IMG/VR virus record: IMGVR_UViG_3300050499_000085 | Source of the DNA: a virus | Strand: one strand, 5' to 3' | Length of the DNA: 46,359 nt | Shown here: positions 1 to 42,043 of the stretch, one piece after another | Numbering within the stretch: position 1 is the first letter of the stretch | How the letters are laid out: every line of letters begins with the position of its first letter | Notes under the pieces: model-generated | Told to the model about the DNA's origin: nothing | What the model saw: the letters and a program-made list of their open reading frames with translations, nothing else | The model's database searches: none | Made by a program: the position numbers and the translations under genes

Positions 1-127
1 ATCTGGCCGACTACCTCACGGGCGTGGTCAAGAATATCGGCGAGCATCCCTTCGTCACCGCCGGGAATCTGATCGGCGCGCAGGTGCGGGTGGTCGATCC
101 GCACTACGAGGCCAAGCGCGGGTCTAC
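1..127. repeat. Terminal direct repeat, left copy (assembly overlap of a circular or permuted genome)
   Basis: Read base by base: 1-127 equals 46233-46359 (offset 46,232). Confidence 0.95.
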
Positions 128-380
128 TGAAGTGTTCCAGAAGCGCGACGTGCTGCAGAAGCGCGCTGGTAAGATTCGCCAGCAGTGGAAGCACATGGAC
201 GAGGAGGACCGCGATGCGGCCACCGCCTCGATCCGCGAGGAGGCGCGCAAGCTGGGCATCCGCCCGCCGATGCTGGGCCCGCCGCGCGCGCCGGGACCGA
301 CCACCAAGCGCGCCATCGAGAACCTGCGCAAGGGCGAGGACAAGGAGCCTGAGCGCGATCCGATCCCCATCACGCAATGA
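1..380 (+). CDS. C-terminal end of the giant internal virion/ejection-type protein (continuation of 42044..46359 across the circular junction)
   Basis: The frame is continuous with the stop-free frame at the window end once the 127-nt overlap is removed. Stop TGA at 378-380. Confidence 0.8.
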   Translation, partial: LADYLTGVVKNIGEHPFVTAGNLIGAQVRVVDPHYEAKRGSTEVFQKRDVLQKRAGKIRQQWKHMDEEDRDAATASIREEARKLGIRPPMLGPPRAPGPTTKRAIENLRKGEDKEPERDPIPITQ

Positions 381-1090
381 ACCTGCCGATGGAAAGCGAA
401 CTGCTCAACTACAACGTGCCCGAAGTGTGCCGCGCGCTGACCGACGCGCGCGGCGACATGATCGTGGCCGCGCGCCTGCTGCGCGTGAAGGTGCGCGACG
501 TGCGCGATGCGATCCAGATGATCCCCGAAGTACAGGGGCATTTCATGGCCGTGCAAAAGGCGGTCGCCGAGCACCCCGACGTGGAGCGCGCCACCTCACA
601 GCAGCTGGACCGGCGCATCCGCCACCTGACCACGGTGTATGCTGCCGACGGGTTGGAGGCGCTGCACGAACTGGCAACGCAGCCGTTCATTCAGGACAGC
701 TACATGATGGACATCAAGTTCAAGGCGGCATCCAAGCTGGTGCAGGCCAAGCCGGTTGACGGGCGCAACGACGACATCGGCCAGCTGATGGTGGCGCTGA
801 ACGAGCAGTACCAGAAGTCCAGCGGTCGCATCACGCATCTGAGCATGCAGCTGGAGCGCATGCAGGGAGGGGGTGAGTCGCTTCATATAGAGGCCACGAG
901 CGAATCTCCTCCCGCCACGCATGAAATAACGCTAGTTCCCTTAGATGCTGTGCCTGAATCCGGTTGTACGCCGGAGCCACTGCCGGAACCGGACGACAGT
1001 GCAGTAGCTCGTAGCAATACACCGATCCCATACGCTGCAGATCACGCAGCTGACCGCGCGACACCGGATAGTCTCGATCCAGAACCTTGA
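377..1090 (+). CDS. Helix-turn-helix-like DNA-binding protein, last gene of the late operon (possible small terminase, speculative)
   Basis: ATGA overlap with the giant gene. N-terminal HTH-like segment NVPEVCRALTDARGDMIVAARLLRVKVRDV. GC-rich third codon positions stop near 870, so the 3' tail (870-1090) looks non-native. Confidence 0.55.
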   Translation: MNLPMESELLNYNVPEVCRALTDARGDMIVAARLLRVKVRDVRDAIQMIPEVQGHFMAVQKAVAEHPDVERATSQQLDRRIRHLTTVYAADGLEALHELATQPFIQDSYMMDIKFKAASKLVQAKPVDGRNDDIGQLMVALNEQYQKSSGRITHLSMQLERMQGGGESLHIEATSESPPATHEITLVPLDAVPESGCTPEPLPEPDDSAVARSNTPIPYAADHAADRATPDSLDPEP

Positions 1091-1793
1091 GCGGCCCGGC
1101 GCTGGGCGCATAGCCCACCATGTCGTAGGCTTCCTGCAGCAGCCCGTTGCTCGGGCGGCGCAGCAGGCGCACCAGCCGGAACGGGCGCGACACCATGCCG
1201 CGCGTGAAGTTGTTGTGATTGTTGTACAGGCGGCTTTGCACCGCCTCGGGCAGTCGCGTGCGCCCCATGACCTCGCGCTGGTTGACGATGATGTAGGCGT
1301 TGGGGTCCAGCCCCAGCGCGCGCACTACCAGCTTGTGCTGATCGGTCAGTCCCTCCTTGAGGCAGGCTTGCATGTCGGCGTAGAGCAGCTGCGCCTGCTC
1401 GGCGGACGGATAGCGAAAGTCCATCTCGCGCTCGATCAGGGCCCACGTCACGGCCGGGCGCGACACCACGATCAGATCGCTGGTGCGCGTGGCCGCGCGC
1501 TTGAAGTCGTGCGGGCTGATCGGGAAGGTGAGCAGCACCACCGCATCACAGCGCAGCGCCGGGTCGCACTCGATCCGCTGCAGCAGCACCCCGCCCTGTT
1601 GATACCACTGCGCCAGCTGCGTCTTGGCGCTGGCCGGGAACTGCGCGATGAACTGCGGCAGTCCCTTCAGCGTCTGGTAGTCGAACAGCGCGTAGCTCGC
1701 CGTGTCGTTGTGGCAGTTGACCCACACCCGCCCGAAGTCGCGGTACAAACCGGCAATGGTGCCCAGCGTGTCCTGGGTGGCAAACTTGCGCAC
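831..1793 (-). CDS. Hypothetical protein, 320 aa (accessory/moron-like), family not recognised
   Basis: GTG start with GGAGG 9 nt upstream. High GC3 from 1793 down to about 1095. The last ~260 nt overlap the convergent gene 377..1090. Confidence 0.6.
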   Translation of the reverse strand: MRKFATQDTLGTIAGLYRDFGRVWVNCHNDTASYALFDYQTLKGLPQFIAQFPASAKTQLAQWYQQGGVLLQRIECDPALRCDAVVLLTFPISPHDFKRAATRTSDLIVVSRPAVTWALIEREMDFRYPSAEQAQLLYADMQACLKEGLTDQHKLVVRALGLDPNAYIIVNQREVMGRTRLPEAVQSRLYNNHNNFTRGMVSRPFRLVRLLRRPSNGLLQEAYDMVGYAPSAGPLKVLDRDYPVSRGQLRDLQRMGSVYCYELLHCRPVPAVAPAYNRIQAQHLRELALFHAWREEIRSWPLYEATHPLPACAPAACSDA

Positions 1794-1818
1794 GCTCTAA
1801 CGCCTCCGGGGGGACGTG

Positions 1819-1995
1819 ATGAAAGCCGTAATCCTAGCTGCGCTGCTCGCCTGCGGCTGCAGCAACACGCCGCTCGCCAAGCGCGCGTGGCATGAGTTGA
1901 CCGACGATGCGGCCCCTTCGTGTACCTGCGCGATTGTGATCTTGGACGGGGAGGGCAAGGTGCTCAAGGAAAAACCGCCGCGCGCGGGGGAATGA
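1819..1995 (+). CDS. Small lipoprotein, 58 aa (lipobox LLAC|GCSN)
   Basis: Not in the ORF track (<60 aa). ATG 1819, product MKAVILAALLACGCSN..., stop TGA 1993-1995. Divergent from the 320-aa gene. Confidence 0.5.
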   Translation: MKAVILAALLACGCSNTPLAKRAWHELTDDAAPSCTCAIVILDGEGKVLKEKPPRAGE

Positions 1996-2008
1996 CGGCG
2001 CGCGGCGG
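1970..2008 (-). terminator. Rho-independent terminator of the leftward early operon
   Basis: 11-bp GC stem CCGCCGCGCGC (1975-1985) / GCGCGCGGCGG (1998-2008), followed on the minus strand by TTTTT (1970-1974). Lies 7 nt after the stop at 2015. Confidence 0.6.
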
Positions 2009-2014
2009 GTGCGG

Positions 2015-2449
2015 CTAGTGCGTGCGGCGCTTGACGACGAACCCTGCCACCATCAGGCCAGCGGCCAGCGTCATCCACGTCTGCGGCTCAGGTACGGGCG
2101 TCAGGAAGGCGCGTGTGCTACCGACGGCGCTGACTCGCTGAGTGAATTGAAAGAACCACATCTCCTCGCTCACGCTGATCCGCGCACGCCCAGCTGGCGG
2201 CGTGACAAATTCCAGTACGAACAGGTCGTCCGGCCACGATCCCTCTCGGATATTGACCTGCTGCGTCGTCACCCCGCTGCCGCTCATGACAAGGTATTGC
2301 GATCTGGGCGGTGGCGACGGGCGGGAGTAGGGCAGGATGTAGACCTCGAAAGACGTGTTGGTGAGGTTGTTCACGGTCAAAACAGCGGCATGGGCAGCGT
2401 GGCCCAGCAACAGCGCCGGGATCAGCAAAAGCCCTAACTTGGTTTTCAT
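2015..2449 (-). CDS. Secreted PEP-CTERM domain protein, 144 aa
   Basis: N-terminal signal peptide MKTKLGLLLIPALLLGHAAHA. C-terminus VPEPQTWMTLAAGLMVAGFVVKRRTH = PEP motif + TM helix + basic cluster. AAAGGGA RBS. Confidence 0.8.
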   Translation of the reverse strand: MKTKLGLLLIPALLLGHAAHAAVLTVNNLTNTSFEVYILPYSRPSPPPRSQYLVMSGSGVTTQQVNIREGSWPDDLFVLEFVTPPAGRARISVSEEMWFFQFTQRVSAVGSTRAFLTPVPEPQTWMTLAAGLMVAGFVVKRRTH

Positions 2450-2477
2450 TGTTATGTTCCCTTTTGGTTGGTACTTC

Positions 2478-2993
2478 TCACTTCGGACTACGGACCCTTC
2501 TTACAACAACTCCGGTCAACACGAGGCCCAGCGCCAGCATGGCCCACGTCTGCGGCTCGGGGATGGCGTAGATAGAGGCCGTGTAGGAAAAGCGCCTCGG
2601 CGACTCGCCCCGGAACTCTCTGGTCGCGGCCGGGCCCCAAATCAATCCGGCGTTGGTGTCCCAGCGCAATTTAGGGTTGTCTGGCAGGGTGAGTTGCGCG
2701 ATCAGTACCGGAAGGGCGAGCGGGATCACCGAGTTGTCGGCAGCCACATCGAAGCGGATGACCTGACCCTGGAAGGCTTCGAAGTCGAACTCCTCGGCGG
2801 GCTCGGCGATGCCAACGTGCCCGGCGCGAATGAATCCGGTGAGCGGGTGGCTGCGTGTGAGCAGATCGAAGCGATCACTGCCCACATGCAGGGCATAGAC
2901 ATCCACCGCGCGGTCGATGCGTGCGTGGACGATGATCGCGCTGGCTTGTCCGGCGAACAGCGCCAGCGCGAGGGCGACAAGTATCTTCTTCAT
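2478..2993 (-). CDS. Secreted PEP-CTERM domain protein, 171 aa
   Basis: Signal peptide MKKILVALALALFAGQASA. C-terminus IPEPQTWAMLALGLVLTGVVVRRVRSPK. ATGA start/stop overlap with the upstream RuvC-like gene. Confidence 0.8.
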   Translation of the reverse strand: MKKILVALALALFAGQASAIIVHARIDRAVDVYALHVGSDRFDLLTRSHPLTGFIRAGHVGIAEPAEEFDFEAFQGQVIRFDVAADNSVIPLALPVLIAQLTLPDNPKLRWDTNAGLIWGPAATREFRGESPRRFSYTASIYAIPEPQTWAMLALGLVLTGVVVRRVRSPK

Positions 2994-3457
2994 GGTAGTA
3001 CCTCCATTGGTTGCGGTATCGGATTGACTAGCTCTGCATAGGTCACTGCAAGCGCGAGCGCCTGCCACTCTCCTCCTTTCAGTCCGTGAGTCAGGCCGGG
3101 ATTTTTCTTGGTGCCCGGTGCACCGAAGCGGTCGATCAGGGCTTGACGGATGTTGCTGTCCTTGGCGCGCGTGTCGTGGCAAACGTGCTGCTTGACCGTG
3201 ATGCGCTTGACGCGCGTAGCCTTGCCGTGCGCCTCGGCAAAGCGCCCGCTCCAGAACACCGTTTCGAACACGTCTTCACCCACTGCCATGCCGTAGCTGG
3301 CAACCTGCTCGATCACCAGCCTCGTGCGGGGGTTCGTGCGCAGGTAGCGCAACAGCTGCTCGTTGTTTTCGGTGTTGGCGTCGATGCTGCCGCTGTCCGT
3401 GTCGTAGACCACCGAACTGCTGACCACCGGCCCCGGATCGATCGCGATGATTTTCAT
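2990..3457 (-). CDS. RuvC-like Holliday junction resolvase
   Basis: N-terminal MKIIAIDPG catalytic-Asp motif, VIEQV acidic motif, RuvC-like C-terminal helix. Sits in the recombination module. Confidence 0.65.
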   Translation of the reverse strand: MKIIAIDPGPVVSSSVVYDTDSGSIDANTENNEQLLRYLRTNPRTRLVIEQVASYGMAVGEDVFETVFWSGRFAEAHGKATRVKRITVKQHVCHDTRAKDSNIRQALIDRFGAPGTKKNPGLTHGLKGGEWQALALAVTYAELVNPIPQPMEVLP

Positions 3458-4620
3458 CCATCCTCTCCCATCTGTCGGCTGTTGCGCGCTGCTGCCTCCT
3501 GCACCATCGAGATCGGGTCGCGCGACTTGAGGCGCGGCTTGCCGTTGGGCAGCAGGCGCTCGGGCTCAGGCTCAGGCTCGGGCTCGGGCTTGGGCTTGGG
3601 CTCGGGCTCCGGTGGGTGCGGTGGCTGCGGTTCGGGCTCCGGCTCCGGCGGCGGCTCGGTCGGGGGGTCTGCCTGTTCCGCAACGATCCGCATGAAGTGC
3701 TCCTTCATGCCGTTCTTGATTGGATCGAGCGGCATGTGCAGGTGCTTGGGCATTGCCATCCAGACCTCGGCCAGTTCGGTCAGATCGCGGCTTGCTTCCA
3801 GCGCCGTCTTCCACTTGCGCTGCTCGGGCGTGAATGGCACGGGCATAACCTCCTGTCTTTGCGCGATCACGTCGCGCAGGTGCTCTTTCTCCTCCGCGTT
3901 GCCCTCGGCCCACTGCGCCAGCCGATGCCCAAGCTGCTCATCCAGTTGCACGCCATCCTTGATGAACTGCTCGAAAGGCGTGCGCAGTCCGTGCGACTGC
4001 GCGCTGAAGTCCGGGCGGCCCTGCGATCCCTCGGGCAGCACCAGCAGGAAGCTCATCTCGTACTCGAAACGATCCGTGATGATCGGCGTCCAGCCAAGTT
4101 GCGTAGGTTCCTCGCCCTTGACGATCTTGATCTTGTCCTTCGCCCTGAAGCAAAAAATAAAGTGCACCGGCAGTTGCAGCATGGTGTTGACGAACAGGTT
4201 GACCTGATGCTTGGGCTCGATCCACGCCGAAAACGTCAAGCGTTCCCGCTTCTTGTAATCATCTCCTGCGCGCTTGTCTAGCTCGCGGTCGTGCATCTCC
4301 AGCACGCCGCCCGGCCCCTCGTGCATGTGGGAGGCGCTGTCCACGATGATGACAGCGGGCTCAAGCAGCATCGCCTGCTGCACGGCCTCGGTGTAGCGGG
4401 CAGGGGAGAAGGGCGCGGTCAGATCGCCGTGCAGATACTTGAAGCGGTCGGCGTACTGCAGGCCACGGCGGGCCTCGGTGTCGATCAGGACAATGGGCTT
4501 GCCCTGCGCGAGTCCAGCCGCAATGCGCAGCGCCGAGTAGGTCTTGCCGGAGCGCGACGGCCCGGCGATGCCCACCATGAGCGGGGTCTGGTTTCTGATT
4601 GCGGGTCTGAACGAGATCAT
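3454..4620 (-). CDS. Sak4-like / AAA_24-type RecA-fold ATPase with a C-terminal extension and Pro-Glu/Pro-Lys linker, 388 aa
   Basis: Walker A GIAGPSRSGKT, Walker B-like AVIIVDS. Start ATG 4620 with GGAGG RBS and ATGA overlap. The longer track ORF (to 5058) overlaps the nuclease gene. Confidence 0.8.
   Translation of the reverse strand: MISFRPAIRNQTPLMVGIAGPSRSGKTYSALRIAAGLAQGKPIVLIDTEARRGLQYADRFKYLHGDLTAPFSPARYTEAVQQAMLLEPAVIIVDSASHMHEGPGGVLEMHDRELDKRAGDDYKKRERLTFSAWIEPKHQVNLFVNTMLQLPVHFIFCFRAKDKIKIVKGEEPTQLGWTPIITDRFEYEMSFLLVLPEGSQGRPDFSAQSHGLRTPFEQFIKDGVQLDEQLGHRLAQWAEGNAEEKEHLRDVIAQRQEVMPVPFTPEQRKWKTALEASRDLTELAEVWMAMPKHLHMPLDPIKNGMKEHFMRIVAEQADPPTEPPPEPEPEPQPPHPPEPEPKPKPEPEPEPEPERLLPNGKPRLKSRDPISMVQEAAARNSRQMGEDG
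3562..3660. repeat. Hexanucleotide (GGGCTC-type) tandem array encoding a PEPEPE/PKPK linker
   Basis: 8 near-perfect GGGCTC/AGGCTC/GGGCTT units at 3562-3609, then degenerate units. Minus-strand translation is PPEPEPEPQPPHPPEPEPKPKPEPEPEPEPE. Confidence 0.85.
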
Positions 4621-5540
4621 GCTTGCACTCCTCCGCCGTACTGGCTCCAGTCGATCATGGCCGTTTGCGCCTCTTCGAACCGCGTGTGTTCGTAGCTGGG
4701 CGCGTCTACCCATGCGATGCGCTGCGGGTAGGCGGGCCAGTGGTCGTTGTAAATGCCATCGCGCCACATGGCGAGCGCCATGTCCACCTTGTCGCTGCCC
4801 AGCCGCATGAAGTCGGGCTTGAGCGCGATGATCGACAGCAGGTAGGGCGGGGCGCTCTCCTGCACCACGAACAGGTAGCGCGGCTCCTCGCCCGTGAGGG
4901 TCTGGTAGCCCCGGCAGTAGAATGCGGCGTCCACGTCCCAGCCCATGCTCGCCACTTGCCGCTGCAGGTACAGCGGATTGGCGCTGCCGCTGGTGGTCTT
5001 GTAGTTCACCAGGATGTGCTGGTCGGTGTCGGCCAAGTCCGCACGCGCCCGGCAGCATACCGGCCCCTCAGCCTCCTGCCACAGCATGGTCAACTCGGCA
5101 TGCTCGTGGCCGTTGGGTCGCCACTCGGCGCGCGCCAGCTGCGCACGCGCTGCCTCCACCATCGCCTGCGCGGTCACGTACTTGTCGGCGAGGATCGCCA
5201 CCTGTCCGTTGTTGGCTGCGTCCGCGCGTATCTGCTGCGCCTCTTTCGAGCGCCAGTCGTTGGCCTCGACCACGACGATGCGCCCCACACGCAGAGGCTC
5301 CAGCAGCATCGAATGCACCGCCGTACCGAAGTCGGTGCGGTTCTGCTCGGCGCTGTCCAGCTTGGGCGCGGTGTAGTTGGGGTTCAGGCGCGGATGCTGG
5401 TGCCATGCGTGATAGGGCGACTGCGTGAGCATCGTGCAGGCGAGCCCGTGCGAGAGCGTCGGCCCTTGCATCAGATCGTCGGCGTGGTAGCGGTCCTCGC
5501 GCACGCTCGGGTGCATCCCTATTCCAAGATCATCCCTCAT
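4617..5540 (-). CDS. PD-(D/E)XK (Cas4/DUF3799-like) recombination exonuclease, 307 aa
   Basis: RADLAD...ILVNYKTT...YLQRQ...Y motif layout. GGAGG RBS before ATG 5540. ATGA overlaps on both sides. Confidence 0.65.
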   Translation of the reverse strand: MRDDLGIGMHPSVREDRYHADDLMQGPTLSHGLACTMLTQSPYHAWHQHPRLNPNYTAPKLDSAEQNRTDFGTAVHSMLLEPLRVGRIVVVEANDWRSKEAQQIRADAANNGQVAILADKYVTAQAMVEAARAQLARAEWRPNGHEHAELTMLWQEAEGPVCCRARADLADTDQHILVNYKTTSGSANPLYLQRQVASMGWDVDAAFYCRGYQTLTGEEPRYLFVVQESAPPYLLSIIALKPDFMRLGSDKVDMALAMWRDGIYNDHWPAYPQRIAWVDAPSYEHTRFEEAQTAMIDWSQYGGGVQA

Positions 5541-6216: not shown

Positions 6217-6318
6217 TTAAACTACAATGAACACTGCCAGCAAGATCAATACCAGCAGCATGCCGACGTAGAATCCCGGCGTGTCGTGCTTGGCACGCGG
6301 AATGCGTGGTGCCCTCAT
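6217..6318 (-). CDS. Small membrane peptide, 33 aa (MRAPRIPRAKHDTPGFYVGMLLVLILLAVFIVV)
   Basis: Not in the track. ATGA overlap with the stop of the upstream gene at 6315. Basic N-terminus plus one TM helix. Confidence 0.4.
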   Translation of the reverse strand: MRAPRIPRAKHDTPGFYVGMLLVLILLAVFIVV

Positions 6319-6563: not shown

Positions 6564-6865
6564 GATTGCGGCTCCTGTTTGTTGATGACCGAATGCTTGC
6601 TCGCGTCGTCGCACGTTGCGAACTTGCGACCGCGCGTGTCCAGGCGAAACGACTGCGCAACGCAGTGCTGTTCTGCCGGGGGCTTGCGCGCCGCGACGTG
6701 CGCAACTTGTGCTAGTACTGCAACACACAGGGTCACCGCCAGCACTTGCGCGCAGCGGCGGATCAGGTGCTCGTTCAAGTCCAGCGCAATCCAGTCGGCG
6801 CTCTTGTCGCGATAGCCGCGCGTGAAGATGCGCCTTGTGATGCGCGTGTCGTAGGGTGTGCTCAT
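6560..6865 (-). CDS. Membrane-associated hypothetical protein, 101 aa
   Basis: Central hydrophobic helix VLAVTLCVAVLAQVAHVAA. Translationally coupled to the next gene. Confidence 0.55.
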   Translation of the reverse strand: MSTPYDTRITRRIFTRGYRDKSADWIALDLNEHLIRRCAQVLAVTLCVAVLAQVAHVAARKPPAEQHCVAQSFRLDTRGRKFATCDDASKHSVINKQEPQS

Positions 6866-6880
6866 GCTTTCTCCTCGGGT

Positions 6881-7240
6881 TTACCTGCGCAATAAACGGG
6901 CCGCTACTTCCAGCAGCAGCGCGGCAATCTGCTTGTCGTCGTTTGCGTGGCGCGCTAGATTGATGACGCGCGCTCTCTTTGCGGGCCGCTCTGGAATTGC
7001 GGCCAGCGGGAACTCGGTCGGCTCGGGCTCTGCCTCCTCGCCTTTCAAGGTTTCCAGTTCTAGAACTTTGCGCCAAGGCCAGTAGTTCTTCTCGCTCATG
7101 TTCAGGCCGAGGGTGGTAATCGCCGCTTTCACGGATGCCTTGGGGTGCGCCGCGCGGTACTGGTTTACCTTGCGCGCCATTTCCATGCGCTCGTGCAGCG
7201 GTTTGCGCACTCTTGCTGCGGTGCCTTTATTCCTTGCCAT
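6881..7240 (-). CDS. Hypothetical basic protein, 119 aa, possible DNA-binding
   Basis: Track ORF. HTH-like ASVKAAITTLGLNMSEKNYW. Fits the operon. Confidence 0.55.
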   Translation of the reverse strand: MARNKGTAARVRKPLHERMEMARKVNQYRAAHPKASVKAAITTLGLNMSEKNYWPWRKVLELETLKGEEAEPEPTEFPLAAIPERPAKRARVINLARHANDDKQIAALLLEVAARLLRR

Positions 7241-16530: not shown

Positions 16531-16727
16531 GGTGGATTGTTACCGTAGTGAACCGTTTGGTTAGCCGGGGGGCTGATATGGGAATCTTCGCGTTGATCTT
16601 GCTGGTGGCCTCTGTTGTGGTGTTCTTGCTGGCGACGGCGTGGATACCGGGGCCGCCGCGTCCGAATCTGATTGCGTTGGGTCTGGCGCTGTACACATTG
16701 CATGTGCTTGTGCAGAAAGCCATGTGA
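16527..16727 (+). CDS. Two-TM small membrane protein, 66 aa (holin-like topology, speculative)
   Basis: Helices GIFALILLVASVVVFLLATAW and LIALGLALYTLHVLV. TGATG overlap with the next gene. Confidence 0.55.
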   Translation: MRWIVTVVNRLVSRGADMGIFALILLVASVVVFLLATAWIPGPPRPNLIALGLALYTLHVLVQKAM

Positions 16728-17884
16728 TGGAACTCACATACACCGATTCTGCCGGTTTGCAGACAGCGGTTTCCGATATTGCCAACTTCAGTGCGGTAGA
16801 GAGCGAGTCTGCGGTTCCCCCGCCGATCTCGATCAAGGTATTGGACGTGACGGACGCGCCGTACAACGTGCGCGAGAATGGGGAGGCGGGCGAGAACGGG
16901 GCGGGGCTTGCGGCCTGTTACCGGGATGCGAGGGCGCAAGGGGCGCAGGTGGAGATACCGCCGGGGCGCTATGTCTATTCGGGCACCTTGATTCACGATT
17001 CGATTACGGTGTTCAACGACGGCGAGTTGGTGGGGGTAGATGCCGACAGCGGCTATTGCATGAAGGGGGCCGATCCGAGGCTGGTCGGGGGTGTGCTCGC
17101 GCACGAGGGTTTGACGGTTCGCGGCTCGCAGATGAACCATCACGGCATTGGTTTGTACGACCAGACCGGCACCTTTGAGATCATCGATGTGACGGTGCGC
17201 AATCCGGCGGCGGCTGGGATATGCATTTGGGATGGGCGCAACGGGCGCATCCTGGGCTGCACGGTCGAGGACTGTCTGGCCGACGGCATGCATCACGTTT
17301 CCAGCGGCGACGGGGTGAGCGGTCATATCTACGAGCGCGGCAACACGGTGCGCCGCTGCGGGGACGACTGTTTGAGTTTCGTGACCTACATGATCAACGC
17401 CAACGTCGTGCACGATGTCGATGTGTACAACTTCCGGGGCGAGGACAACACTTGGGGGCGCGGCATTACGATTCAGGGTGCGGAGCGCATCAACATTTGG
17501 ACTGCGCAGCTGAACCGGATCAAGTGTTTCGGGATTTATTGCGGGATCGAGCAGAATTACGGCACGGTCAGCAAGGCGGTGCTGCACGATGTCAAATTGG
17601 ACGTGTGCGGGCAGTGGTCCTCGGGTGCGGACACGCAGGACGGGGTGTTGATCAGCGGCTGGACCAGCACGACGGTATGCGAGTTGCACGATGTGGTGAT
17701 CTCGCGCCCGATGCGTCACGGTGTTTTGCGCTATCACGAGAGCGGCAACACGTTTGTCGCGGACAACGTGATCTACCACGAGATTGCGGGGCAGGAAGTG
17801 TACAACGTGCCCTCTGGCAAGGAGCACGAGCCCTACGTTTATCCGGCGCGATTTGCGCGGTTTGTCGGGCCGCGCGGGGAGTAG
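16727..17884 (+). CDS. Right-handed beta-helix (pectate-lyase-3-like) polysaccharide depolymerase, 385 aa
   Basis: N-terminal LDVTDAPYNVRENGEAGENGAGLAACYRDARAQGAQVEIPPGRYVY, then PbH1-type repeats (IIDVTVRN..., ILGCTVEDC..., NTVRRCGDDCL...). Confidence 0.75.
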   Translation: MELTYTDSAGLQTAVSDIANFSAVESESAVPPPISIKVLDVTDAPYNVRENGEAGENGAGLAACYRDARAQGAQVEIPPGRYVYSGTLIHDSITVFNDGELVGVDADSGYCMKGADPRLVGGVLAHEGLTVRGSQMNHHGIGLYDQTGTFEIIDVTVRNPAAAGICIWDGRNGRILGCTVEDCLADGMHHVSSGDGVSGHIYERGNTVRRCGDDCLSFVTYMINANVVHDVDVYNFRGEDNTWGRGITIQGAERINIWTAQLNRIKCFGIYCGIEQNYGTVSKAVLHDVKLDVCGQWSSGADTQDGVLISGWTSTTVCELHDVVISRPMRHGVLRYHESGNTFVADNVIYHEIAGQEVYNVPSGKEHEPYVYPARFARFVGPRGE

Positions 17885-20223: not shown

Positions 20224-21270
20224 ATGCGCTATCTCATCGTGCTGTTGTTCGTTCTCGCATCAAACCTCACAAATTCGCAGGTTTTCGCGCAATCGGCCTG
20301 CACGCCGGAGCAGCTGCGGGATCGCTACAAGCCCATTGTGCCCGCCAAGCAGTTGACCGAGCACACATGGTCGTGCCCGCCGCAGTATGAGTTGGTCAAT
20401 CAGTCGTGCGTGTCGCCGGTCATCCGCGTTGTGGACCAGATCGACAATCTGCGCGGCACCTATCATGCGCGCAACGCCTCTGGGCAGACCCTGATCTATC
20501 AGGACGAGTACGGCTCGCAGTGGCACGTCGAACAACACGACGAGCAGGGCAGGCCAAGTGCGATTCGCCAGCCCGACGCCAGCGTGGTCACGCTGACGTG
20601 GAGCGGGGAAAACATCGCTTCGCGCACCGCCGAGGGCGACAAGGTGCTCTATTCGCTCTACGACAAATCGGGACTGCCGCGCGGGCTGGAAGTTCAGGGC
20701 ATCGGCTGGATGTTCGCCTCGCCGCTCAAGCAGGGCGGGCTTGATTGGAGTCATATCGAGAGCAGCGGCGGGGCCGGGACGTTCGTCATGGACTTCGGTG
20801 GCCTGACGGCGGGCTTGCCCACGCCCCCGCCCTCGGTCAGCACGATGGGCGCGGCTGCCACGCCGGTGCCGTTGCGCCTGTTCGTGTTTTCGTTTCCGGT
20901 CGTCAATCTGCCGCCGGTGGTGGCTATCGGCATGGCCGGGGCGGGCGGCTTGTACGTGGGCAGCGCGATCTATCCGTTGATCGAACCGGCGCTCTCGCCG
21001 ATCATCGATGCGTGCGCGGCGGCGGTGGACAGCGGGCGCGAGTGCCGCAAGGCGGCTAACGCGCTGCTCAATACCGAGTTGGCGGCGTGCAAAGAGGCGC
21101 GCTCCAGGGAGTTCAAGCAATGGCTGGAGTCGGACAAGCAGCGCCCGGCGGGCCAGCCGCGCGATCAGGCGTGGCTGGATCGGATCAACAAGGCATTCGG
21201 CGACTGTAATGCGGCGGCGTTCAAGAAATTCAGCGCGGCCATTGCCGAATGCTTCAAAGCCCAGGAGTGA
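20224..21270 (+). CDS. Secreted protein, 348 aa, with YD/Rhs-like repeats, a hydrophobic segment and a helical Cys-containing C-terminus
   Basis: Signal peptide MRYLIVLLFVLASNLTNSQVFA. YQDEYGSQ / HDEQGRPSAI / YSLYDKSGLPRG YD-like repeats. TM-like VVAIGMAGAGGLYVGSAIYPLI. AAGGGAGAAG RBS. Confidence 0.65.
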   Translation: MRYLIVLLFVLASNLTNSQVFAQSACTPEQLRDRYKPIVPAKQLTEHTWSCPPQYELVNQSCVSPVIRVVDQIDNLRGTYHARNASGQTLIYQDEYGSQWHVEQHDEQGRPSAIRQPDASVVTLTWSGENIASRTAEGDKVLYSLYDKSGLPRGLEVQGIGWMFASPLKQGGLDWSHIESSGGAGTFVMDFGGLTAGLPTPPPSVSTMGAAATPVPLRLFVFSFPVVNLPPVVAIGMAGAGGLYVGSAIYPLIEPALSPIIDACAAAVDSGRECRKAANALLNTELAACKEARSREFKQWLESDKQRPAGQPRDQAWLDRINKAFGDCNAAAFKKFSAAIAECFKAQE

Positions 21271-22065: not shown

Positions 22066-22302
22066 GGCGGCGACGCGCTGGTGCAGATCGGGCTGGGGCT
22101 CACCCTGCTCGGCGCCTACGTGCTGTTCGTGCTGTGGGCGCGGCGCGAGTGGTTGCATGCGGAGCCCAGCAACCGCCCGGAGCAGTGGCGCTTTCCACCG
22201 CCGCAGGAGGAAGCGGCGCCGCAGGAGCCGCCGCCCAAACGGCGCTGCCGACGCCGCCGGGTGCGAAACCGCCCGCGCCGGGCCATCGTGGTCGTGACGT
22301 GA
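22060..22302 (+). CDS. Small membrane protein, 80 aa, with an Arg/Pro-rich tail
   Basis: GTG start. TM helix ALVQIGLGLTLLGAYVLFVLWA. GTGA overlap with the terminase start. Confidence 0.45.
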   Translation: MSGGDALVQIGLGLTLLGAYVLFVLWARREWLHAEPSNRPEQWRFPPPQEEAAPQEPPPKRRCRRRRVRNRPRRAIVVVT

Positions 22303-24308
22303 ATTTAGACCGCACCGAGCTTTTGCGGCGCATGTCGGAGGACCGCGCGCTCGCGCTGGACATGCTGTTTTCGGCCAAGCACGAGGACGCGACCCCGGCG
22401 ATCCACCTGAAGATCGTGCAGGCGTGGCGCTCGGCGCACGAGCGCGTGCTGATCGAGGGCTTTCGCGGCAGCGCCAAGACCACCAAGGCGCAGGAGTTCA
22501 TCGCGGTCGAAGCCTGTTACGCCAACTTCCCGTTCGGCCTGCTGTTTGGCGAGACGTGGGACAAGGCGTGTGAAAAGCTGGAGAACATCAAGTTCGCGCT
22601 CAAGACCAACCGCATGCTGATCGGCATGTTCGGCACCCTGCTGGGCAAGGGCGCGACCGACAAAGTGGACTCCATCGTGCTCACCAACGGGGTTCGCATC
22701 GACGCCTACGGCAAGGGCCAGTCGCCGCGCGGTCGCTTGCACCACGACGCGCGCCCGACCTTTGCCATGCTGGACGACATCGAGAACAAGCTGAACGGGG
22801 ATGTGGCCTCCAAGGAGGCGGTCGATACCACCGTGTCGTGGTTGTACGCCGAGGTGATCCCGGCGCTCGATCCCAAGCGCGGGCGCATCCGCGTGAACTG
22901 CACGCCGGAGGGTACCGACTGCCTGCCGGTACGCCTTCGCACAGACGACAGCTGGATGCGGTTGTACTTCCCGATCTGCTTGGGCGAGCCGGAGGACGAG
23001 GATGCGCAGCCGCTGTGGGAGTCGCGCTTCGGCCTGCCGTGGATTCGCAATCAAAAGGCGCTGTTCGAACGGCAGGGATTGTCGGACGACTTCGACCGTG
23101 AATATATGCTGCGGGCCCGCTCCAACGAACTCGCCGACTTCGATGAGCGCGACCTGCAGGAATGCCCGGCCCTGCCAACCGACCATCTGCCGGTGTGGGC
23201 GATGTACGATCCGGCGCGCACCAAGGATCGGAAATCCGACAACTACGGGCGGGTGGTTGCCGCCTTTCACGGCAACACGATCTACGTCGTGCTCTCGGGC
23301 GGCATGAACTGGAAGCCGTCCGACATGATCAACGACCTGTTCGATGTGAACGAGCAGTACCGGCCTATCGGCTTGGGGGTGGAGAGCGATTCGCTGGAGG
23401 ACTGGATGCGCGAGCCGATCCGCGCCGAGATGATCAAGCGCAACACCGTGCTGCCGCTGGTCGATCTGCGCGCGCCCAACGACAAGAGCAAGCACGACTT
23501 CATCCGGGGGGCGCTGCAGCCGTTTTGCCGGGCGCGGGCGATTGTGCTGGTGGGCGGGCGCGGCGCGCACCAGCAGCTGGTGGAGGAGATGCGCCGCTTT
23601 CCGTCGAAGAACGACAACGTGGTCAACGCGCTGGCTTATATTGTGAAGATGCGGCCCGGTGAGCCGGTGTACGGCGAGTTTTCCGATGCCAACGTGTCCG
23701 TCAACGCGCAGCCCCAGCGTTCCGGCGCGATCATGCTCGCCTTCAACCAGTCCAGCACCGAGGTCACTTGTGTGGCGGTGCAGCAGGTGGGGTTGGCGTT
23801 CTACCTGCTGCGCGAGTGGGTGGAGCCGGGGGCGGTGGCCGATGCGGTTCGCTCGATCTGGATGTCGGCGCAAGGCGAGCTTGGGCGTCATTCCTTGGTG
23901 GCCTACTCGCCTGCCGACGTGTTCGATGAGTGGACGCGGCTGGAATTGAACCGCCATCTGCGCGGACTGAACATACAGCCAGCACGCGGGGGCTACTATC
24001 AGGAAAGCCTCGCCTGCCTGAACGACAGCGTGCGCACCACGATCCGGGGCCAGCGGGCGTTGCTGGTTTCGCCCGAGTGCCGCTACTTGATCGCCGGGCT
24101 GATGGGCGGCTACGCCATCCCGATGAAAGCCGGGCGGCTGGCCGACGAGCCGGTCGAAGGGCTGCACCGCACGCTAGTCGCGGGCCTGGAATGCATGCTG
24201 TATCAGGTCATGCGCGGGCAGGGGGCTGCGGCCCAAGCCAACTACGCCAGCGTGGGCGGGCGCCAGTTCATGACGACCCGGCCCGACATTTACGCCCGTC
24301 CGCGCTAG
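22299..24308 (+). CDS. terL: Terminase large subunit, 669 aa
   Basis: Walker A-like GFRGSAKTT, Walker B-like FAMLDDIE. Size and position directly upstream of the portal. GTG 22299 chosen over the Ala/Gly-rich upstream extension. Confidence 0.85.
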   Translation: MNLDRTELLRRMSEDRALALDMLFSAKHEDATPAIHLKIVQAWRSAHERVLIEGFRGSAKTTKAQEFIAVEACYANFPFGLLFGETWDKACEKLENIKFALKTNRMLIGMFGTLLGKGATDKVDSIVLTNGVRIDAYGKGQSPRGRLHHDARPTFAMLDDIENKLNGDVASKEAVDTTVSWLYAEVIPALDPKRGRIRVNCTPEGTDCLPVRLRTDDSWMRLYFPICLGEPEDEDAQPLWESRFGLPWIRNQKALFERQGLSDDFDREYMLRARSNELADFDERDLQECPALPTDHLPVWAMYDPARTKDRKSDNYGRVVAAFHGNTIYVVLSGGMNWKPSDMINDLFDVNEQYRPIGLGVESDSLEDWMREPIRAEMIKRNTVLPLVDLRAPNDKSKHDFIRGALQPFCRARAIVLVGGRGAHQQLVEEMRRFPSKNDNVVNALAYIVKMRPGEPVYGEFSDANVSVNAQPQRSGAIMLAFNQSSTEVTCVAVQQVGLAFYLLREWVEPGAVADAVRSIWMSAQGELGRHSLVAYSPADVFDEWTRLELNRHLRGLNIQPARGGYYQESLACLNDSVRTTIRGQRALLVSPECRYLIAGLMGGYAIPMKAGRLADEPVEGLHRTLVAGLECMLYQVMRGQGAAAQANYASVGGRQFMTTRPDIYARPR

Positions 24309-24780: not shown

Positions 24781-26937
24781 GTGGCGTCGCGCAATCCGCC
24801 GCCGACCGATCCGGTCGAGGCGGACATCGAGAACTCGGTCGATCAGACCGAGCCTGCCAAGGGTTCCAAGAAGCCCAAGAACTTCGCACGCCGCAAAGAC
24901 GGCACCGCATTCACCGTGGCCGAGGCGCGCTGGAAGACGATCCGCCAAGCCTACGACAACGATGAGGAGTGGCGGCTGAAGATCGAGAGCAACTGGAACA
25001 TCTACAACTGCAGACTCGATGACAACCAATCGTACAGCGGCTTCTCGCAGGGCTACGTGCCGGTCGTGCGCGATTGCGTGGATGCACGCGGTCGCAAAAT
25101 CCTAAAGCAGCTGTTCCCGGTGCGGGGCCGCAATCTGGAGGGCGTGTCGTCCGACGGCATGACGCCCTACGCCACCATCTCGCTGCTGGAGTACTACATC
25201 CGCCAGTCGGGGCTGCGCACCACCTTGGAAGCAATGCTCACGCAGGGCGATGTCACCGGCCAGTGGCAGCTGTACGTGGATTGGTACGCCGAGAAAAAGC
25301 AGGTCACGCGCGTGGTGGAAAAGCAGGCGCAACTCGATGACGGCACGCCAAGCCCCGATGACACCTACGCCGATATCGAGGACCAGGAGTACACCGAGAA
25401 TTGCCCGGACATCTCGGTGGTGCCCACGCTCGATGTCGCTGTCATACCGCCGACGGTTGACGAGTTGCGCAAGGCCGAGATCGTGGTCATATGCCATCGG
25501 TATTCGGAGACTAAAGTCCAGTCGATGATCGACCGTGGCGTGTTCGTCAATGTGCGCTGCGACGAGTTGATGGAAGCCTTCGATCAGTACGGCGAGAATC
25601 CCGAGTCCATCGGCGTCAAGGTGCTGGAGCAGCTGGGCATCGATGTGGACGGCACCGACGTGCATGCGCGCGTGTACGAGGCGCACTTCAAGCTGACACT
25701 GGACGGCGAGCACCGCGAGCCTGCGGTGGTGTGGTATCGCCATGACGGCGTGCCTCTTGGCATCCTCGCCAATCCGTACTGGTGCAAGCGCCTGCCGCTG
25801 ATCAGCGTGCCGGTGAAAAAGCAGCCGGGCTCGTTCTGGGGGACGCCGGTCATCGAGCCGGTTCGCTCGCTGCAGTGGGACATCAACGACGTTCACAACA
25901 TCGGCAACGACGCGGCCAAGTACGCGCTCAACCCGGTCATCATGACCGATCCGCAGAAAAATCCGCAGTACCAGAATTTGATCATGACGATGGCGGCGGT
26001 GTGGCCGACCAGTCCGCAGGACACGCAGCCCTTGGCGCTGCCGCCGGTGTATCAGCACGCGCAACAGATCATCGAGTTTTTGAAGATGCAGGTGCGCCAA
26101 TCGATGAACGTGACCGAGTACGCGCTGGGCGCGATGCCGCAGGGGCGCAAGAACAACTCGCAGGTCGCCGCCGTGGGCCAGGAGCAGGAGATCGGCGCGA
26201 CCGACGTGGCCTCCGACGTGGAGGATCGCGTGTTGAATCCACTGGTGGAGTTGATCTTCGAACTGGACCAGCAGTACCGGGTGGACGAGTTGGACGTGCT
26301 CACGCGCGGGGAGGTCGGGCTGCAGGCGCACATGGAGCGGGTGAAGCCCCAGCAGTTCACCAAGAAGTATCAATTCAACTGGCTCGGCACCGACTTCACC
26401 AATTCGATTGCGCGCATCCAGCAGAAGATCGCGGCGATGAACGTGCTGCGCGGCGTGCCGCCCGAGGCGCTGAACGGCAAGCGCGTGGACATCACCCCGA
26501 TCATCGAGGACATGATCTCCACCGTGTTCGGCCCGCAGCTGGCGCCCAAGGTCATCATCGATGAGCGCGATCAGCTGTCGATGCCCGCCTCGGTCGAGGA
26601 CGAACTGCTCGCCAACGGTTTCTCGGTGGCGGTGCATCCGATGGACAACGACGTGGCGCACATGATGAGCCACATGGCGGGCGCGCAGGCCACCGGCGAC
26701 CCGGCGCGCACGTTCGCCAAGCACATCATGGATCACCAGAAACAAATGCAGCAAAAAGCGCAGATCGCGGGGCCCAGCCTCAACGGAACGCCCGGCGTGC
26801 CGGGGGGCACGGGCCCCGGCGTCGCTGGCACCCCGCGACCCGGCGCACAGGTCATGCCGTTGCGCAACGCCCAGCAGCCGCCCGGCGCCATTCATCAGGA
26901 TCAGATCGCATCCCCAGACGTTATGAGCAGAGGCTGA
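24781..26937 (+). CDS. Portal protein, 718 aa
   Basis: Size and position immediately after the large terminase and at the head of the structural operon. No motif-level confirmation possible by eye. Confidence 0.7.
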   Translation: MASRNPPPTDPVEADIENSVDQTEPAKGSKKPKNFARRKDGTAFTVAEARWKTIRQAYDNDEEWRLKIESNWNIYNCRLDDNQSYSGFSQGYVPVVRDCVDARGRKILKQLFPVRGRNLEGVSSDGMTPYATISLLEYYIRQSGLRTTLEAMLTQGDVTGQWQLYVDWYAEKKQVTRVVEKQAQLDDGTPSPDDTYADIEDQEYTENCPDISVVPTLDVAVIPPTVDELRKAEIVVICHRYSETKVQSMIDRGVFVNVRCDELMEAFDQYGENPESIGVKVLEQLGIDVDGTDVHARVYEAHFKLTLDGEHREPAVVWYRHDGVPLGILANPYWCKRLPLISVPVKKQPGSFWGTPVIEPVRSLQWDINDVHNIGNDAAKYALNPVIMTDPQKNPQYQNLIMTMAAVWPTSPQDTQPLALPPVYQHAQQIIEFLKMQVRQSMNVTEYALGAMPQGRKNNSQVAAVGQEQEIGATDVASDVEDRVLNPLVELIFELDQQYRVDELDVLTRGEVGLQAHMERVKPQQFTKKYQFNWLGTDFTNSIARIQQKIAAMNVLRGVPPEALNGKRVDITPIIEDMISTVFGPQLAPKVIIDERDQLSMPASVEDELLANGFSVAVHPMDNDVAHMMSHMAGAQATGDPARTFAKHIMDHQKQMQQKAQIAGPSLNGTPGVPGGTGPGVAGTPRPGAQVMPLRNAQQPPGAIHQDQIASPDVMSRG

Positions 26938-32921: not shown

Positions 32922-34346
32922 ATGAGCCGCATCCTTCTGCAACTGCTTGCACCGTTCCTGCCCGGCGGGTTCTTCGCGCCGGGTCTGGTCAATCAGCAAG
33001 CCTCCTTCGCAGCCGATGTCAGCAACTACATTGCCGACAAGACGCTGCCACTGGCGCGGCGGCAGCTGATTGCCTATCAGTTCGGCGATCCGCTCGACTT
33101 GCCCGCGCATTCGGGCCTGACCTACACCGCCTCGCGCTACGAGCGTCTGCCGCTGCCGTTCCAGCCGCTGACCGAAGGTGTAGCCCCGCCCGGATCGGCG
33201 ATGACGTTGCAGCAGGTGCAGGCGACCGCGCAGCAGTGGGGCGACCGCGTGATCATCACCGACGTGGCCGATCTGACCATCAAGCACCCGCTGTTCAAAA
33301 AAGCGGTGGAACTGGTGGGCATGCAGCTGCCCGAAACCCTGGAGCGCAACACCTTCACGACCCTGCAGTCGGGCGTGCAGGTCAATTTCGCCAACGGGCG
33401 TGCCACACGCGGCGCACTCACCGCGACCGACGTGCTCACGCCTTTGGAAGTCTCGCGCGTGGTGGGCTCGCTCACGACCTACGGCGCCCCGCGCTTCATG
33501 GGCGACGAGCGCGAGGACATGAAGATCGACGCCGACCGCTCGCCCAACCGGGGCAGCAATTCGCCTGCGGTCATGGAGCACTACGTCGCGCTGGTGCATC
33601 CGCTGGTGTCGCAGGACTTGCGCCAGAACGCATCGGTGGTGCAGGCGTGGGCCTTCAGCGATGTCAACCGGCTCTACAACAACGAGCTTGGCGCGTGGGG
33701 CGGGGTGCGCTTCTGCTCGTCCAACATGATCCCCTATTGGGTGGGCGTGGCGGCAGTGAGCGGCACGGCCTCGGCCACCGGCGGCTCGCTCGCCACCTCG
33801 GCCACCTACAACATTCAGGTCACCGGCGCACCGGCGCAGACCTCGGTCGAGCAGCGCATCTATGCCGCCTCGGGCAGCATCTCGGTCACCGGCCCGACCG
33901 GCTCGATTGCGGTCACTACGCCCAACGTGCCGGGCTACGTGTTCAACATCTACGTGAGCAGCACGGCCACCATCTCCAACCTCGGCTTGACCGCGCTGGG
34001 CCCGACCTCCGGCCCGCTCGCAGGCAACGCCGTGCAGCTGCCGCCCAACACCAGCGTGGTCATCACCGGCATCGGCGCGGCGCAGACCCCGCCGCAGGCA
34101 CCAACGGCAGGGGTCACCGTGTTCCCGACCTACTTCATCGGGCGCGGGGCCTACGGTCAGGTCACCTTGGCCGACGCCGAGTTCCACTACCTGACCGGCG
34201 CGGACAAATCCGATCCGAACAACCAGACGCGGGTGGTGAGTTGGAAGGTGTTTTACGGCTCGATCTTCTTGAACCAAGGATTCATGGCGCGCGTGGAATC
34301 GGCTAGCGCCTTCGCGGCTGGCTACACGAGCGGCACCGTTTCCTAA
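32922..34346 (+). CDS. Major capsid protein (HK97 fold, N4-gp56-like pattern), 474 aa
   Basis: LPAHSGLTYTASRYERLP...LTEGVAPPG...QQWGDRVIITDVADL...ETLERN matches the family pattern from memory. Followed by the strongest terminator in the genome. Confidence 0.85.
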   Translation: MSRILLQLLAPFLPGGFFAPGLVNQQASFAADVSNYIADKTLPLARRQLIAYQFGDPLDLPAHSGLTYTASRYERLPLPFQPLTEGVAPPGSAMTLQQVQATAQQWGDRVIITDVADLTIKHPLFKKAVELVGMQLPETLERNTFTTLQSGVQVNFANGRATRGALTATDVLTPLEVSRVVGSLTTYGAPRFMGDEREDMKIDADRSPNRGSNSPAVMEHYVALVHPLVSQDLRQNASVVQAWAFSDVNRLYNNELGAWGGVRFCSSNMIPYWVGVAAVSGTASATGGSLATSATYNIQVTGAPAQTSVEQRIYAASGSISVTGPTGSIAVTTPNVPGYVFNIYVSSTATISNLGLTALGPTSGPLAGNAVQLPPNTSVVITGIGAAQTPPQAPTAGVTVFPTYFIGRGAYGQVTLADAEFHYLTGADKSDPNNQTRVVSWKVFYGSIFLNQGFMARVESASAFAAGYTSGTVS

Positions 34347-42040: not shown

Positions 42041-42043
42041 TCC

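Follow-up and report, generated by a model that had tools for sequence, protein, structure and literature searches.

Two adjacent minus-strand open reading frames (ORFs), designated ORF A and ORF B, lie near one end of the viral DNA recorded in IMG/VR as IMGVR_UViG_3300050499_000085, the whole 46,359-nucleotide stretch of which is referred to below as the window. Each is predicted to encode a small secreted protein that ends in a PEP-CTERM sorting signal. The PEP-CTERM domain is defined by a PEP motif, a transmembrane (TM) helix and a cluster of basic residues at the extreme C-terminus, and it is linked to exosortase and to extracellular polymeric substances (EPS) (PMC12188702). The balance of the evidence inclines, if only slightly, towards a joint interpretation in which ORFs A and B are real early genes of a phage and their products are exported PEP-CTERM cargo for the exosortase of the host, altering the surface or the EPS of the infected cell. 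The two genes and the junction with the gene that precedes them are laid out as follows, in the order of transcription.

2990..3457, minus strand: RuvC-like Holliday junction resolvase, 155 aa (phrog_1770, E 1.4e-13), directly upstream of ORF B.
2990..2993, minus strand: ATGA overlap of the resolvase stop codon (TGA, 2990..2992) with the ORF B start codon (ATG, 2991..2993), with a GGAGG Shine-Dalgarno sequence 6 nt upstream.
2478..2993, minus strand: ORF B, predicted secreted protein of 171 aa (ATG at 2993; signal peptide 1-19, cut between ASA and I; PEP-CTERM tail).
2015..2449, minus strand: ORF A, predicted secreted protein of 144 aa (signal peptide 1-21, cut between AHA and A; PEP-CTERM tail), starting 28 nt past the end of ORF B.

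Both proteins begin with what appears to be a Sec-type signal peptide, assigned by a hydropathy heuristic together with an AxA cleavage site read from the sequence by eye: MKKILVALALALFAGQASA followed by II in ORF B, and MKTKLGLLLIPALLLGHAAHA followed by AV in ORF A. In each there are two basic residues within the first six, a hydrophobic core and the AxA site, so that the signal peptides proposed by an earlier sequence-only reading of this DNA are borne out at this level. By hydropathy analysis each protein has a single hydrophobic segment at either terminus, and ORF B, the mature domain of which is beta-rich, has an additional internal hydrophobic stretch. The C-terminal sequences are IPEPQTWAMLALGLVLTGVVVRRVRSPK in ORF B and VPEPQTWMTLAAGLMVAGFVVKRRTH in ORF A. 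The tail of ORF B consists of IPEPQTW (PEP at residue 145 of 171), a TM helix at 149-167 (AMLALGLVLTGVVV) and then RRVRSPK, and that of ORF A of VPEPQTW (PEP at residue 120 of 144), a TM helix at 124-140 (MTLAAGLMVAGFVV) and then KRRTH. The defining succession of PEP motif, TM helix and terminal basic cluster is thus present in both. The tails share 52% identity across 31 residues; no similarity is detectable between the mature domains.

The profile scan for which the sequence-only reading had called upholds its assignment of the C-termini to PEP-CTERM. The Pfam model PF07589 is passed by both proteins (23.6 bits for ORF B and 21.7 bits for ORF A, against a gathering score of 20.7), and TIGR02595 is passed by ORF B (17.4, cut-off 16). 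Named PEP-CTERM families (NF038129, FxDxF, MHFG, EDSAP-1 and the floc PepA family) score 16-34 bits, below their cut-offs of 50-100, and align with the last 30-37 residues of the two proteins only. A six-frame regular-expression scan finds the combination of signal peptide and PEP-CTERM tail nowhere else in the window. Gene callers predict both ORFs in every contig that extends that far, and the GC content at their third codon positions (GC3) is near that of the flanking genes. Judged from the sequence, ORFs A and B can be assigned to the PEP-CTERM domain family by every testable criterion, ORF A marginally.

The evidence that ORF B is maintained as a gene comes from the comparison of its neighbourhood with that of a related phage. 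The genes involved in this comparison, apart from the resolvase, are the following.

4617..5540, minus strand: PD-(D/E)XK / DUF3799 exonuclease, 307 aa (phrog_412, exonuclease VIII, E 2.1e-52; PF12684).
3454..4620, minus strand: AAA_24-type ATPase, 388 aa, of the recombination/replication module (PF13479; phrog_1366, E 4.6e-51).
1816..1995, plus strand: short convergent ORF whose ATG at 1819 gives 58 aa; lipoprotein-type signal (MMKAVILAALLAC followed by GC) and CxC...CTC pattern; called in 7 contigs.
831..1793, minus strand: gene of 320 aa downstream of ORF A, called in all long contigs.
703..831, minus strand: ORF of 43 aa, past the 320-aa gene.

An orthologue of ORF B, P0010, is encoded at the syntenic position on L039 and L040, contigs from other samples. 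The gene order in L039 is exonuclease, AAA_24 ATPase, 155-aa resolvase, P0010 and a homologue of the 320-aa gene, and the 43-aa ORF is conserved there as well. The overlap with the RuvC-like gene to which the sequence-only reading had drawn attention is not only present in the window but also conserved, since the resolvase and P0010 genes of L039 share the same 4-nt ATGA overlap at 6256..6259. By tblastn, ORF B is 28% identical to P0010, as against 64-79% for six neighbouring genes: 74% for the exonuclease, 76% for the ATPase (76-82% over all comparisons made), 75% for the resolvase (likewise 75-76%), 67% over the full length for the 320-aa gene, 79% for the 43-aa ORF and 64% for a giant gene of the virion region. 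The gaps between P0010 and ORF B are all in frame, the signal peptide and a PEPSTW-TM-KRRR tail are kept, and the segments common to the two mature parts are IVHAR, the region around Y33-G38, FDF and IRF. This pattern is typical of proteins that face a variable partner, and it indicates that ORF B is a retained, functional gene which is diverging fast. ORF A has no counterpart in L039 and would for this reason be an accessory addition, behaving as an inserted gene does. The proposal that the pair is not an isolated moron therefore holds for ORF B, with its syntenic orthologue, and fails for ORF A.

The 58-aa ORF also has a homologue in L039, which was missed there by the gene caller (6762..6914, minus strand, VKAAIVAALVMLCGCAQ...CTC...). 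The two align with a score of 56, compared with -13 +/- 8.7 for shuffled sequences; both carry a lipoprotein-type signal, and the CGC...CTC cysteines are conserved. Given such a signal in this conserved ORF as well, the locus may be regarded as a small cluster of envelope-directed proteins. No Pfam or PADLOC match is found for the 58-aa protein, which may represent an exclusion lipoprotein of the Llp/Cor type or else resemble an o-spanin.

Searches for further relatives of the locus gave little. A single-protein scan of IMG/VR returned no related locus, and no relative of the AAA_24 ATPase, taken as a prophage marker, turned up when bacterial genomes were scanned by alignment. A metagenome scan recovered 14 distant ATPase relatives from unrelated phage types; a regular-expression scan detected no PEP-CTERM ORF at these 14 loci, and the resolvase does not lie downstream in the seven longer loci that were read.

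The mature domains themselves, for which the sequence-only reading had recommended a homologue search, yielded a relative in one case and none in the other. In a word-index search of 5.8 billion proteins ORFs A and B each matched themselves alone. When 1.84 billion cluster representatives were searched exhaustively by HMMER with ORF B as the query, one full-length homologue emerged, P0010 (169 aa, E 1.7e-5), and a profile built from ORF B and P0010 retrieved no further relatives. Seven other HMMER matches of ORF B were inspected and rejected as mature-domain homologues, the similarity being confined to the tail (in long or fused bacterial PEP-CTERM proteins) or repetitive; inspection was limited to these seven, and the remaining weak matches were not taken as homologues. 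Two of the bacterial proteins among the matches, P0008 and P0016, have the tail, TM helix and RRR cluster in the middle of the protein and again at the end. They look like two PEP-CTERM proteins placed head to tail, by a fusion in gene calling or by true duplication, and under either origin they show that tandem PEP-CTERM genes are common.

The genes are phage-encoded, as the sequence-only reading had assumed. Removal of a 127-bp overlap from the window leaves a complete circular phage genome of 46,232 bp, which contains tail-protein, resolvase and exonuclease genes in addition to the following hallmarks.

46233..46359 = 1..127: exact 127-bp terminal direct repeat, indicating a circular or terminally redundant genome; contig L001 spans the junction.
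22134..24308: terminase large subunit.
24781..26937: portal.
32922..34346: major head protein.

Contigs L001-L010 (JGI 3300009100, 3300006853 and 3300006846 and several SRR and ERZ assemblies) represent the same phage in at least 10 runs or assemblies, and over 6 kb they are identical save for one mismatch in L006, which suggests either one clonal population that was repeatedly sampled or reassemblies of the same data. Close relatives are absent from 50,697 GenBank phage records (megablast of positions 1-25000 gave no match), and tblastn of the terminase, capsid and ATPase against GenBank phages reached distant relatives only, at 24-33% identity; as these come from varied hosts, they are of no help in identifying the host. 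A tRNA scan of the phage returned 0, and there is no integrase among the scanned ORFs.

The identity of the enzyme that would act on the tails can be approached only through the host. No exosortase-like multi-pass membrane ORF occurs in the phage, and a phage-encoded exosortase was rejected on this ground, so that any processing must be performed by the host. The exact tail pattern [IV]PEPQTWAM is found at no fewer than 120 loci in bacterial genomes, and the matches listed include Burkholderiales, Rhodocyclales, Sphingomonadales, Verrucomicrobiota, Acidobacteriota and Deltaproteobacteria. The best 45 of 122 such matches were inspected, and all are terminal PEP-CTERM tails of the same form. The tails of ORFs A and B thus appear authentic in form and not diagnostic of a lineage, and the motif was rejected as a marker of host lineage because of its occurrence in so many. 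A comparison of tetranucleotide usage between the phage and 8-kb bacterial loci carrying the exact tail gave a mean r of 0.83 both for Burkholderiales of the Comamonadaceae/Sphaerotilaceae type (n=17) and for Rhodocyclales (n=3), with 0.74 for Oxalobacteraceae, 0.73 for Sphingomonadales and 0.64 for Verrucomicrobiota, the reference value for the L039 phage being 0.92. Composition therefore points weakly towards Comamonadaceae/Sphaerotilaceae-type Burkholderiales or Rhodocyclales. Aquincola and Zoogloea are placed in these two groups. Both genera include PEP-CTERM floc formers that have been studied experimentally (Aquincola, PMC9850573; Zoogloea, PMC12188702).

If the two proteins are exosortase cargo, then a sequence of events can be proposed for them. 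ORFs A and B would be co-transcribed with the recombination and replication genes, and for this reason expressed early. Sec would carry the proteins through the inner membrane, in which the C-terminal helix would hold them, and the host exosortase would then cut at the PEP motif and pass them to the cell surface or the exopolysaccharide layer; the steps of export, anchoring, cleavage and delivery are taken over from what is known of the bacterial pathway (PMC12188702). Once delivered, the proteins may change the surface or the EPS of the infected cell. That such a change would matter to the phage is suggested by two further gene products.

16640..17884, plus strand: beta-helix protein, 414 aa, candidate depolymerase (PF13229, E 3.2e-7, 30.5 bits, gathering threshold 25.9).
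27732..30692, plus strand: beta-helix protein, 986 aa, candidate tailspike/depolymerase (PF13229, E 3.3e-11; phrog_2234, tail spike, E 9.6e-7).

The two polysaccharide depolymerases announced by the sequence-only reading correspond to this pair of right-handed beta-helix proteins, which are candidates for that activity by fold only. Proteins of this kind suit a phage able to bind or degrade polysaccharide at the surface, and in view of them the phage probably recognises EPS. In bacteria, proteins of the PepA type hold EPS on the cells, and overexpression of PepA raises bound EPS and lowers soluble EPS (PMC9850573). In phage T5 an early-expressed envelope lipoprotein blocks the receptor and excludes superinfection. 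A role for ORFs A and B in changing the surface or EPS is suggested by these three lines together, namely EPS retention by PepA-type proteins, the depolymerase-like proteins and the precedent of the T5 lipoprotein. The most likely benefit would be that adsorption to a cell already infected is denied to other phages, or to the progeny of this one, and masking of the receptor or EPS, with exclusion of other phages and protection of progeny, is the function that we consider most likely, with low-to-moderate confidence. The convergent 58-aa lipoprotein may assist in the manner of T5 Llp, and the rapid divergence of ORF B fits a protein that tracks a variable host surface.

Several points weigh against this interpretation. 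The score of ORF A on TIGR02595, 13.7, is under the cut-off of 16, and the PEPxxWA-CTERM model NF035944, which requires at least 35 bits, is failed by both ORF B (28.9) and ORF A (20.7). The mature domains of the two proteins have no match in PHROG, Pfam or PADLOC, and AlphaFold2 models of ORF B reach a predicted local distance difference test (pLDDT) score of 37.8 for the sequence alone and 40.6 with P0010 included, so that no fold can be recognised, and fold matches at such values would be meaningless. As the mature domains are without a recognisable fold or family, the proposed function is read from context alone. The host exosortase and the processing of the two proteins are likewise deduced. 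No promoter for the two genes was found, a search for sigma-54 promoters having given matches at chance level with none near ORFs A and B, and gene order is the sole ground for supposing early expression. The family of ORF B has two members only, so that selection cannot be quantified, and since all contigs of the phage are identical there is no signal of microdiversity to draw upon. Finally, some of the IMG/VR contigs discussed below may include host flanks, phage context having been checked for a handful of them.

The same observations must also be read under alternative explanations, the simplest of which is that the tail of each protein is a membrane anchor and nothing else. ORFs A and B would then act in the periplasm or at the inner membrane, for instance by keeping other phages from injecting their DNA as P22 SieA and T4 Imm do, with no involvement of exosortase. 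The signal peptide and lone C-terminal helix of each protein, a position among early genes and beside a small lipoprotein gene, and a rapid divergence typical of exclusion genes are all what such a mechanism would produce. A plain anchor, however, needs no PEP-x-T-W motif, and yet the motif is kept in ORF A, in ORF B and in P0010 despite the 28% identity, in tails which are indistinguishable from bacterial exosortase signals and which pass the Pfam model in both ORFs; the anchor explanation is accordingly considered unlikely. It could also be supposed that the proteins are decoy substrates with which the phage floods the host exosortase and blocks the maturation of the host's own PEP-CTERM proteins, loosening the EPS or floc and easing the spread of progeny. 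This would suit two tandem genes with near-identical tails and unrelated mature domains, their apparent early expression, the presence of two depolymerase-like beta-helix proteins and the fact that host PEP-CTERM proteins hold EPS on cells (PMC9850573). For a decoy the tail alone would do, yet the mature segments listed above (IVHAR, Y33-G38, FDF and IRF) are conserved between ORF B and P0010. Moreover, we know of nothing on the saturation of exosortase, and a decoy function is regarded as rather improbable.

The remaining alternatives concern the origin of the genes and not their mode of action. If ORFs A and B were host-derived PEP-CTERM genes carried without benefit, then the lack of ORF A in L039 would be expected, as would the tandem arrangement, soil bacteria having numerous and often tandem PEP-CTERM genes. 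The word-index, HMMER and profile searches, however, found no bacterial homologue of either mature domain, ORF B is intact with its resolvase overlap in two phages whose neighbouring genes are ~64-79% identical, and the GC3 of the two ORFs does not set them apart from the flanking genes, which leaves passenger status a slender chance. High-GC DNA also gives rise to many long spurious ORFs, and chance ORFs that happen to contain the motifs have to be considered for that reason. Chance would nevertheless have to supply two adjacent ORFs that both have a Shine-Dalgarno sequence, encode a signal peptide and end in a domain significant in Pfam, in an architecture unique in six frames, predicted by the gene callers and matched by an orthologue in L039 with gaps in frame only; that these are not genes at all is scarcely credible.

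With exported cargo for the host exosortase as the preferred interpretation, the question arises of whether the case is isolated. A scan of IMG/VR for DNA encoding [IV]PEPQTW showed that, among the matches listed, 8 of 28 stretches end real PEP-CTERM proteins with signal peptides. In three unrelated contigs the gene stands immediately before the terminase and portal genes (L020), after a virion structural or baseplate-like gene with a capsid gene nearby (L023), or adjoining tail-fibre genes (L034). In a scan for VPEPxTWA, which gave at least 120 loci, 111 of the 128 matches listed look real. A PEP-CTERM family of ~183 aa with a signal peptide ('ATLQIEVFDNG...', 'TLQIEVFDNG...SSVTLDA...HTLTVD...') recurs in many predicted viral contigs (L181, L184, L185, L194, L213, L219 at 579..1223, L238, L243, L257, L261-L264 and L277), three of which were measured and range from 49 to 64% GC. 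Its neighbours include genes for a virion structural protein, a DNA ejection protein, a helicase and ParB/methyltransferase, and the L020 protein beside the terminase gene is a distant member. Several of the IMG/VR PEP-CTERM proteins, including the ~183-aa family, pass the PEPxxWA-CTERM cut-off, and several pass TIGR02595.

In reference collections such genes are not found. Four of the IMG/VR PEP-CTERM proteins, including the ~183-aa family, were compared with PHROG and gave no match. GenBank phages likewise yielded no match to the ~183-aa family and, by tblastn, nothing real for the tail of ORF B, in a search whose sensitivity is lowered by the low-complexity filter. The statement of the sequence-only reading that no role has been described for phage-encoded PEP-CTERM cargo agrees with the searchable literature on PEP-CTERM or exosortase and phages or prophages, which contains no study of such proteins and one passing mention, in a preprint on Dehalococcoides. 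The PEP-CTERM sorting signal itself is known, but phage genes would be a new genetic setting for it, one which apparently recurs and has so far gone undescribed. A broader generalization, which we put forward as possible but on the doubtful side, is that PEP-CTERM proteins form a widespread and undescribed class of phage accessory genes, a fast-evolving cargo routinely loaded onto the exosortase of EPS-producing Gram-negative hosts in order to re-dress the surface or matrix of the infected or lysogenised cell. Exclusion, cloaking of receptors and control of aggregation are possible effects under this generalization.

The surroundings of the two genes require some revision of the picture of an operon that they close. 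ORFs A and B belong to a block of minus-strand genes that runs from ~12 kb to ~0.7 kb and includes the recombination/replication module, and the sequence-only reading had made them the last cistrons of this early operon, followed by a terminator. They are not the last, because the 320-aa gene and the 43-aa ORF, both conserved, follow on the same strand. The supposed terminator can be located as follows.

1967..2008, minus strand: candidate terminator hairpin (arms 1975-1985 and 1998-2008, 11 bp all G/C, 12-nt loop, then UUUUUCCUU), 6 nt past the ORF A stop codon.

The inverted repeat is 100% complementary and folds at -25.8 kcal/mol (z -2.8), and the GC-rich stem and the run that follows it are present. 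In other respects the claim is less secure: the hairpin lies within the 3' end of the convergent 58-aa ORF, a consensus terminator scan with a loop limit of 3-8 nt did not report it, probably because the 12-nt loop exceeds that limit, and no equivalent was seen on reading L039, where the convergent genes have overlapping stop codons. A terminator is plausible but non-canonical, and as two minus-strand genes follow, the hairpin is at best an attenuator.

The 320-aa protein has no Pfam, PHROG or PADLOC match. At E <= 0.1 PADLOC returned no match for ORF A, ORF B, the 58-aa ORF, the 320-aa protein or P0010, so that known superinfection-exclusion and anti-phage families are without sequence similarity here (PADLOC, and PHROG for ORFs A and B). 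The 3' end of the 320-aa gene is overlapped by ~260 nt by a convergent plus-strand ORF of 237 aa (377..1090), which was not predicted by the gene callers and starts in an ATGA overlap with the stop codon of a giant gene; a stretch of L039 matches it at 66% identity, and where the 237-aa ORF overlaps 831..1793 (67% conserved) both strands are conserved relative to that phage. The giant gene (~1522 aa, 42041..46359 continuing to 380) has no Pfam match, closes the late block and contains the circular junction. In the C-terminal part of the AAA_24 ATPase (3475..3640, minus strand) a low-complexity Pro/Glu/Lys repeat, PPTEPPPEPEPEPQPPHPPEPEPKPKPEPEPEPEPE, joins the core to a C-terminal segment that is short and conserved; the repeat differs in length between the two phages, and its PEP strings are unrelated to the sorting signal. 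Elsewhere, a 348-aa protein (20224..21270, plus strand) has a clear signal-like N-terminal segment, MRYLIVLLFVLASNLTNSQVFAQS, and a second hydrophobic segment at 217-239, and it has no Pfam, PHROG or NCBIfam match; it would be one more protein that the phage exports.

The significance of these genes lies in the pathway to which they point. Sorting by PEP-CTERM and exosortase is linked to EPS retention, flocculation and biofilms (PMC9850573, PMC12188702), and it is a common but poorly understood route for the surface proteins of environmental Gram-negative bacteria. For the Gram-positive case there is a parallel in prophage-encoded sortase substrates such as SasX, which have ecological and clinical consequences (PMC7047976). 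For studies of exosortase processing, ORFs A and B offer two well-delimited small substrates together with an orthologue that occurs in nature. They also suggest that floc- and biofilm-forming hosts can have their matrix or surface changed by phages, which bears on activated sludge, on the rhizosphere and on host range. Beyond this pair, viral metagenomes appear to contain many more genes of the kind, which cultured-phage references do not represent, neither INPHARED nor PHROGs giving a match. The PEP-CTERM tail is also a clue for host prediction, since the host should encode an exosortase. If PEP-CTERM proteins do form a widespread phage class, then phages would be exploiting exosortase as a host factor, and the tail could serve as a marker for predicting hosts.

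Among known systems, the cargo proteins of the bacterial PEP-CTERM/exosortase pathway, reportedly the subject of Haft et al. 2006, are the obvious term of comparison. Bacterial cargo such as PepA of Zoogloea resiniphila and Aquincola tertiaricarbonis shares with ORFs A and B the tripartite tail and the signal peptide. It is chromosomal, whereas ORFs A and B are phage-encoded; it lies in an EPS/exosortase locus, whereas ORF B overlaps a resolvase gene in a recombination module; and pepA has a sigma-54 promoter (PMC9850573), of which ORFs A and B show no counterpart. Resemblance to the named PEP-CTERM subfamilies does not extend beyond the tail. SasX, encoded by the phiSPbeta prophage, is a protein supplied by a phage and sorted to the surface by a host enzyme (PMC7047976), as is proposed for ORFs A and B, but it does so by LPXTG and sortase in a Gram-positive envelope and not by PEP-CTERM and exosortase in an envelope of the other type, and it is a lysogenic-conversion gene of a temperate phage, whereas here the scanned ORFs lack an integrase and the genes stand among early genes. 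T5 Llp is a small exported envelope protein made early, as ORFs A and B would be, and the neighbouring 58-aa lipoprotein ORF is similar to it in format; Llp is targeted by a lipobox and ORFs A and B by PEP-CTERM, and PADLOC and PHROG reveal no sequence similarity. The passing mention in the literature concerns HOG10 of the Dehalococcoides IME1 virus-like elements (bioRxiv 10.64898/2026.09.15.751708), a conserved gene with a PEP-CTERM domain in an integrative element of Chloroflexota which has features of filamentous or budding viruses and is unrelated to this tailed phage. In mechanism, then, ORFs A and B would appear to stand nearest to bacterial PEP-CTERM cargo, and in logic nearest to SasX and Llp.

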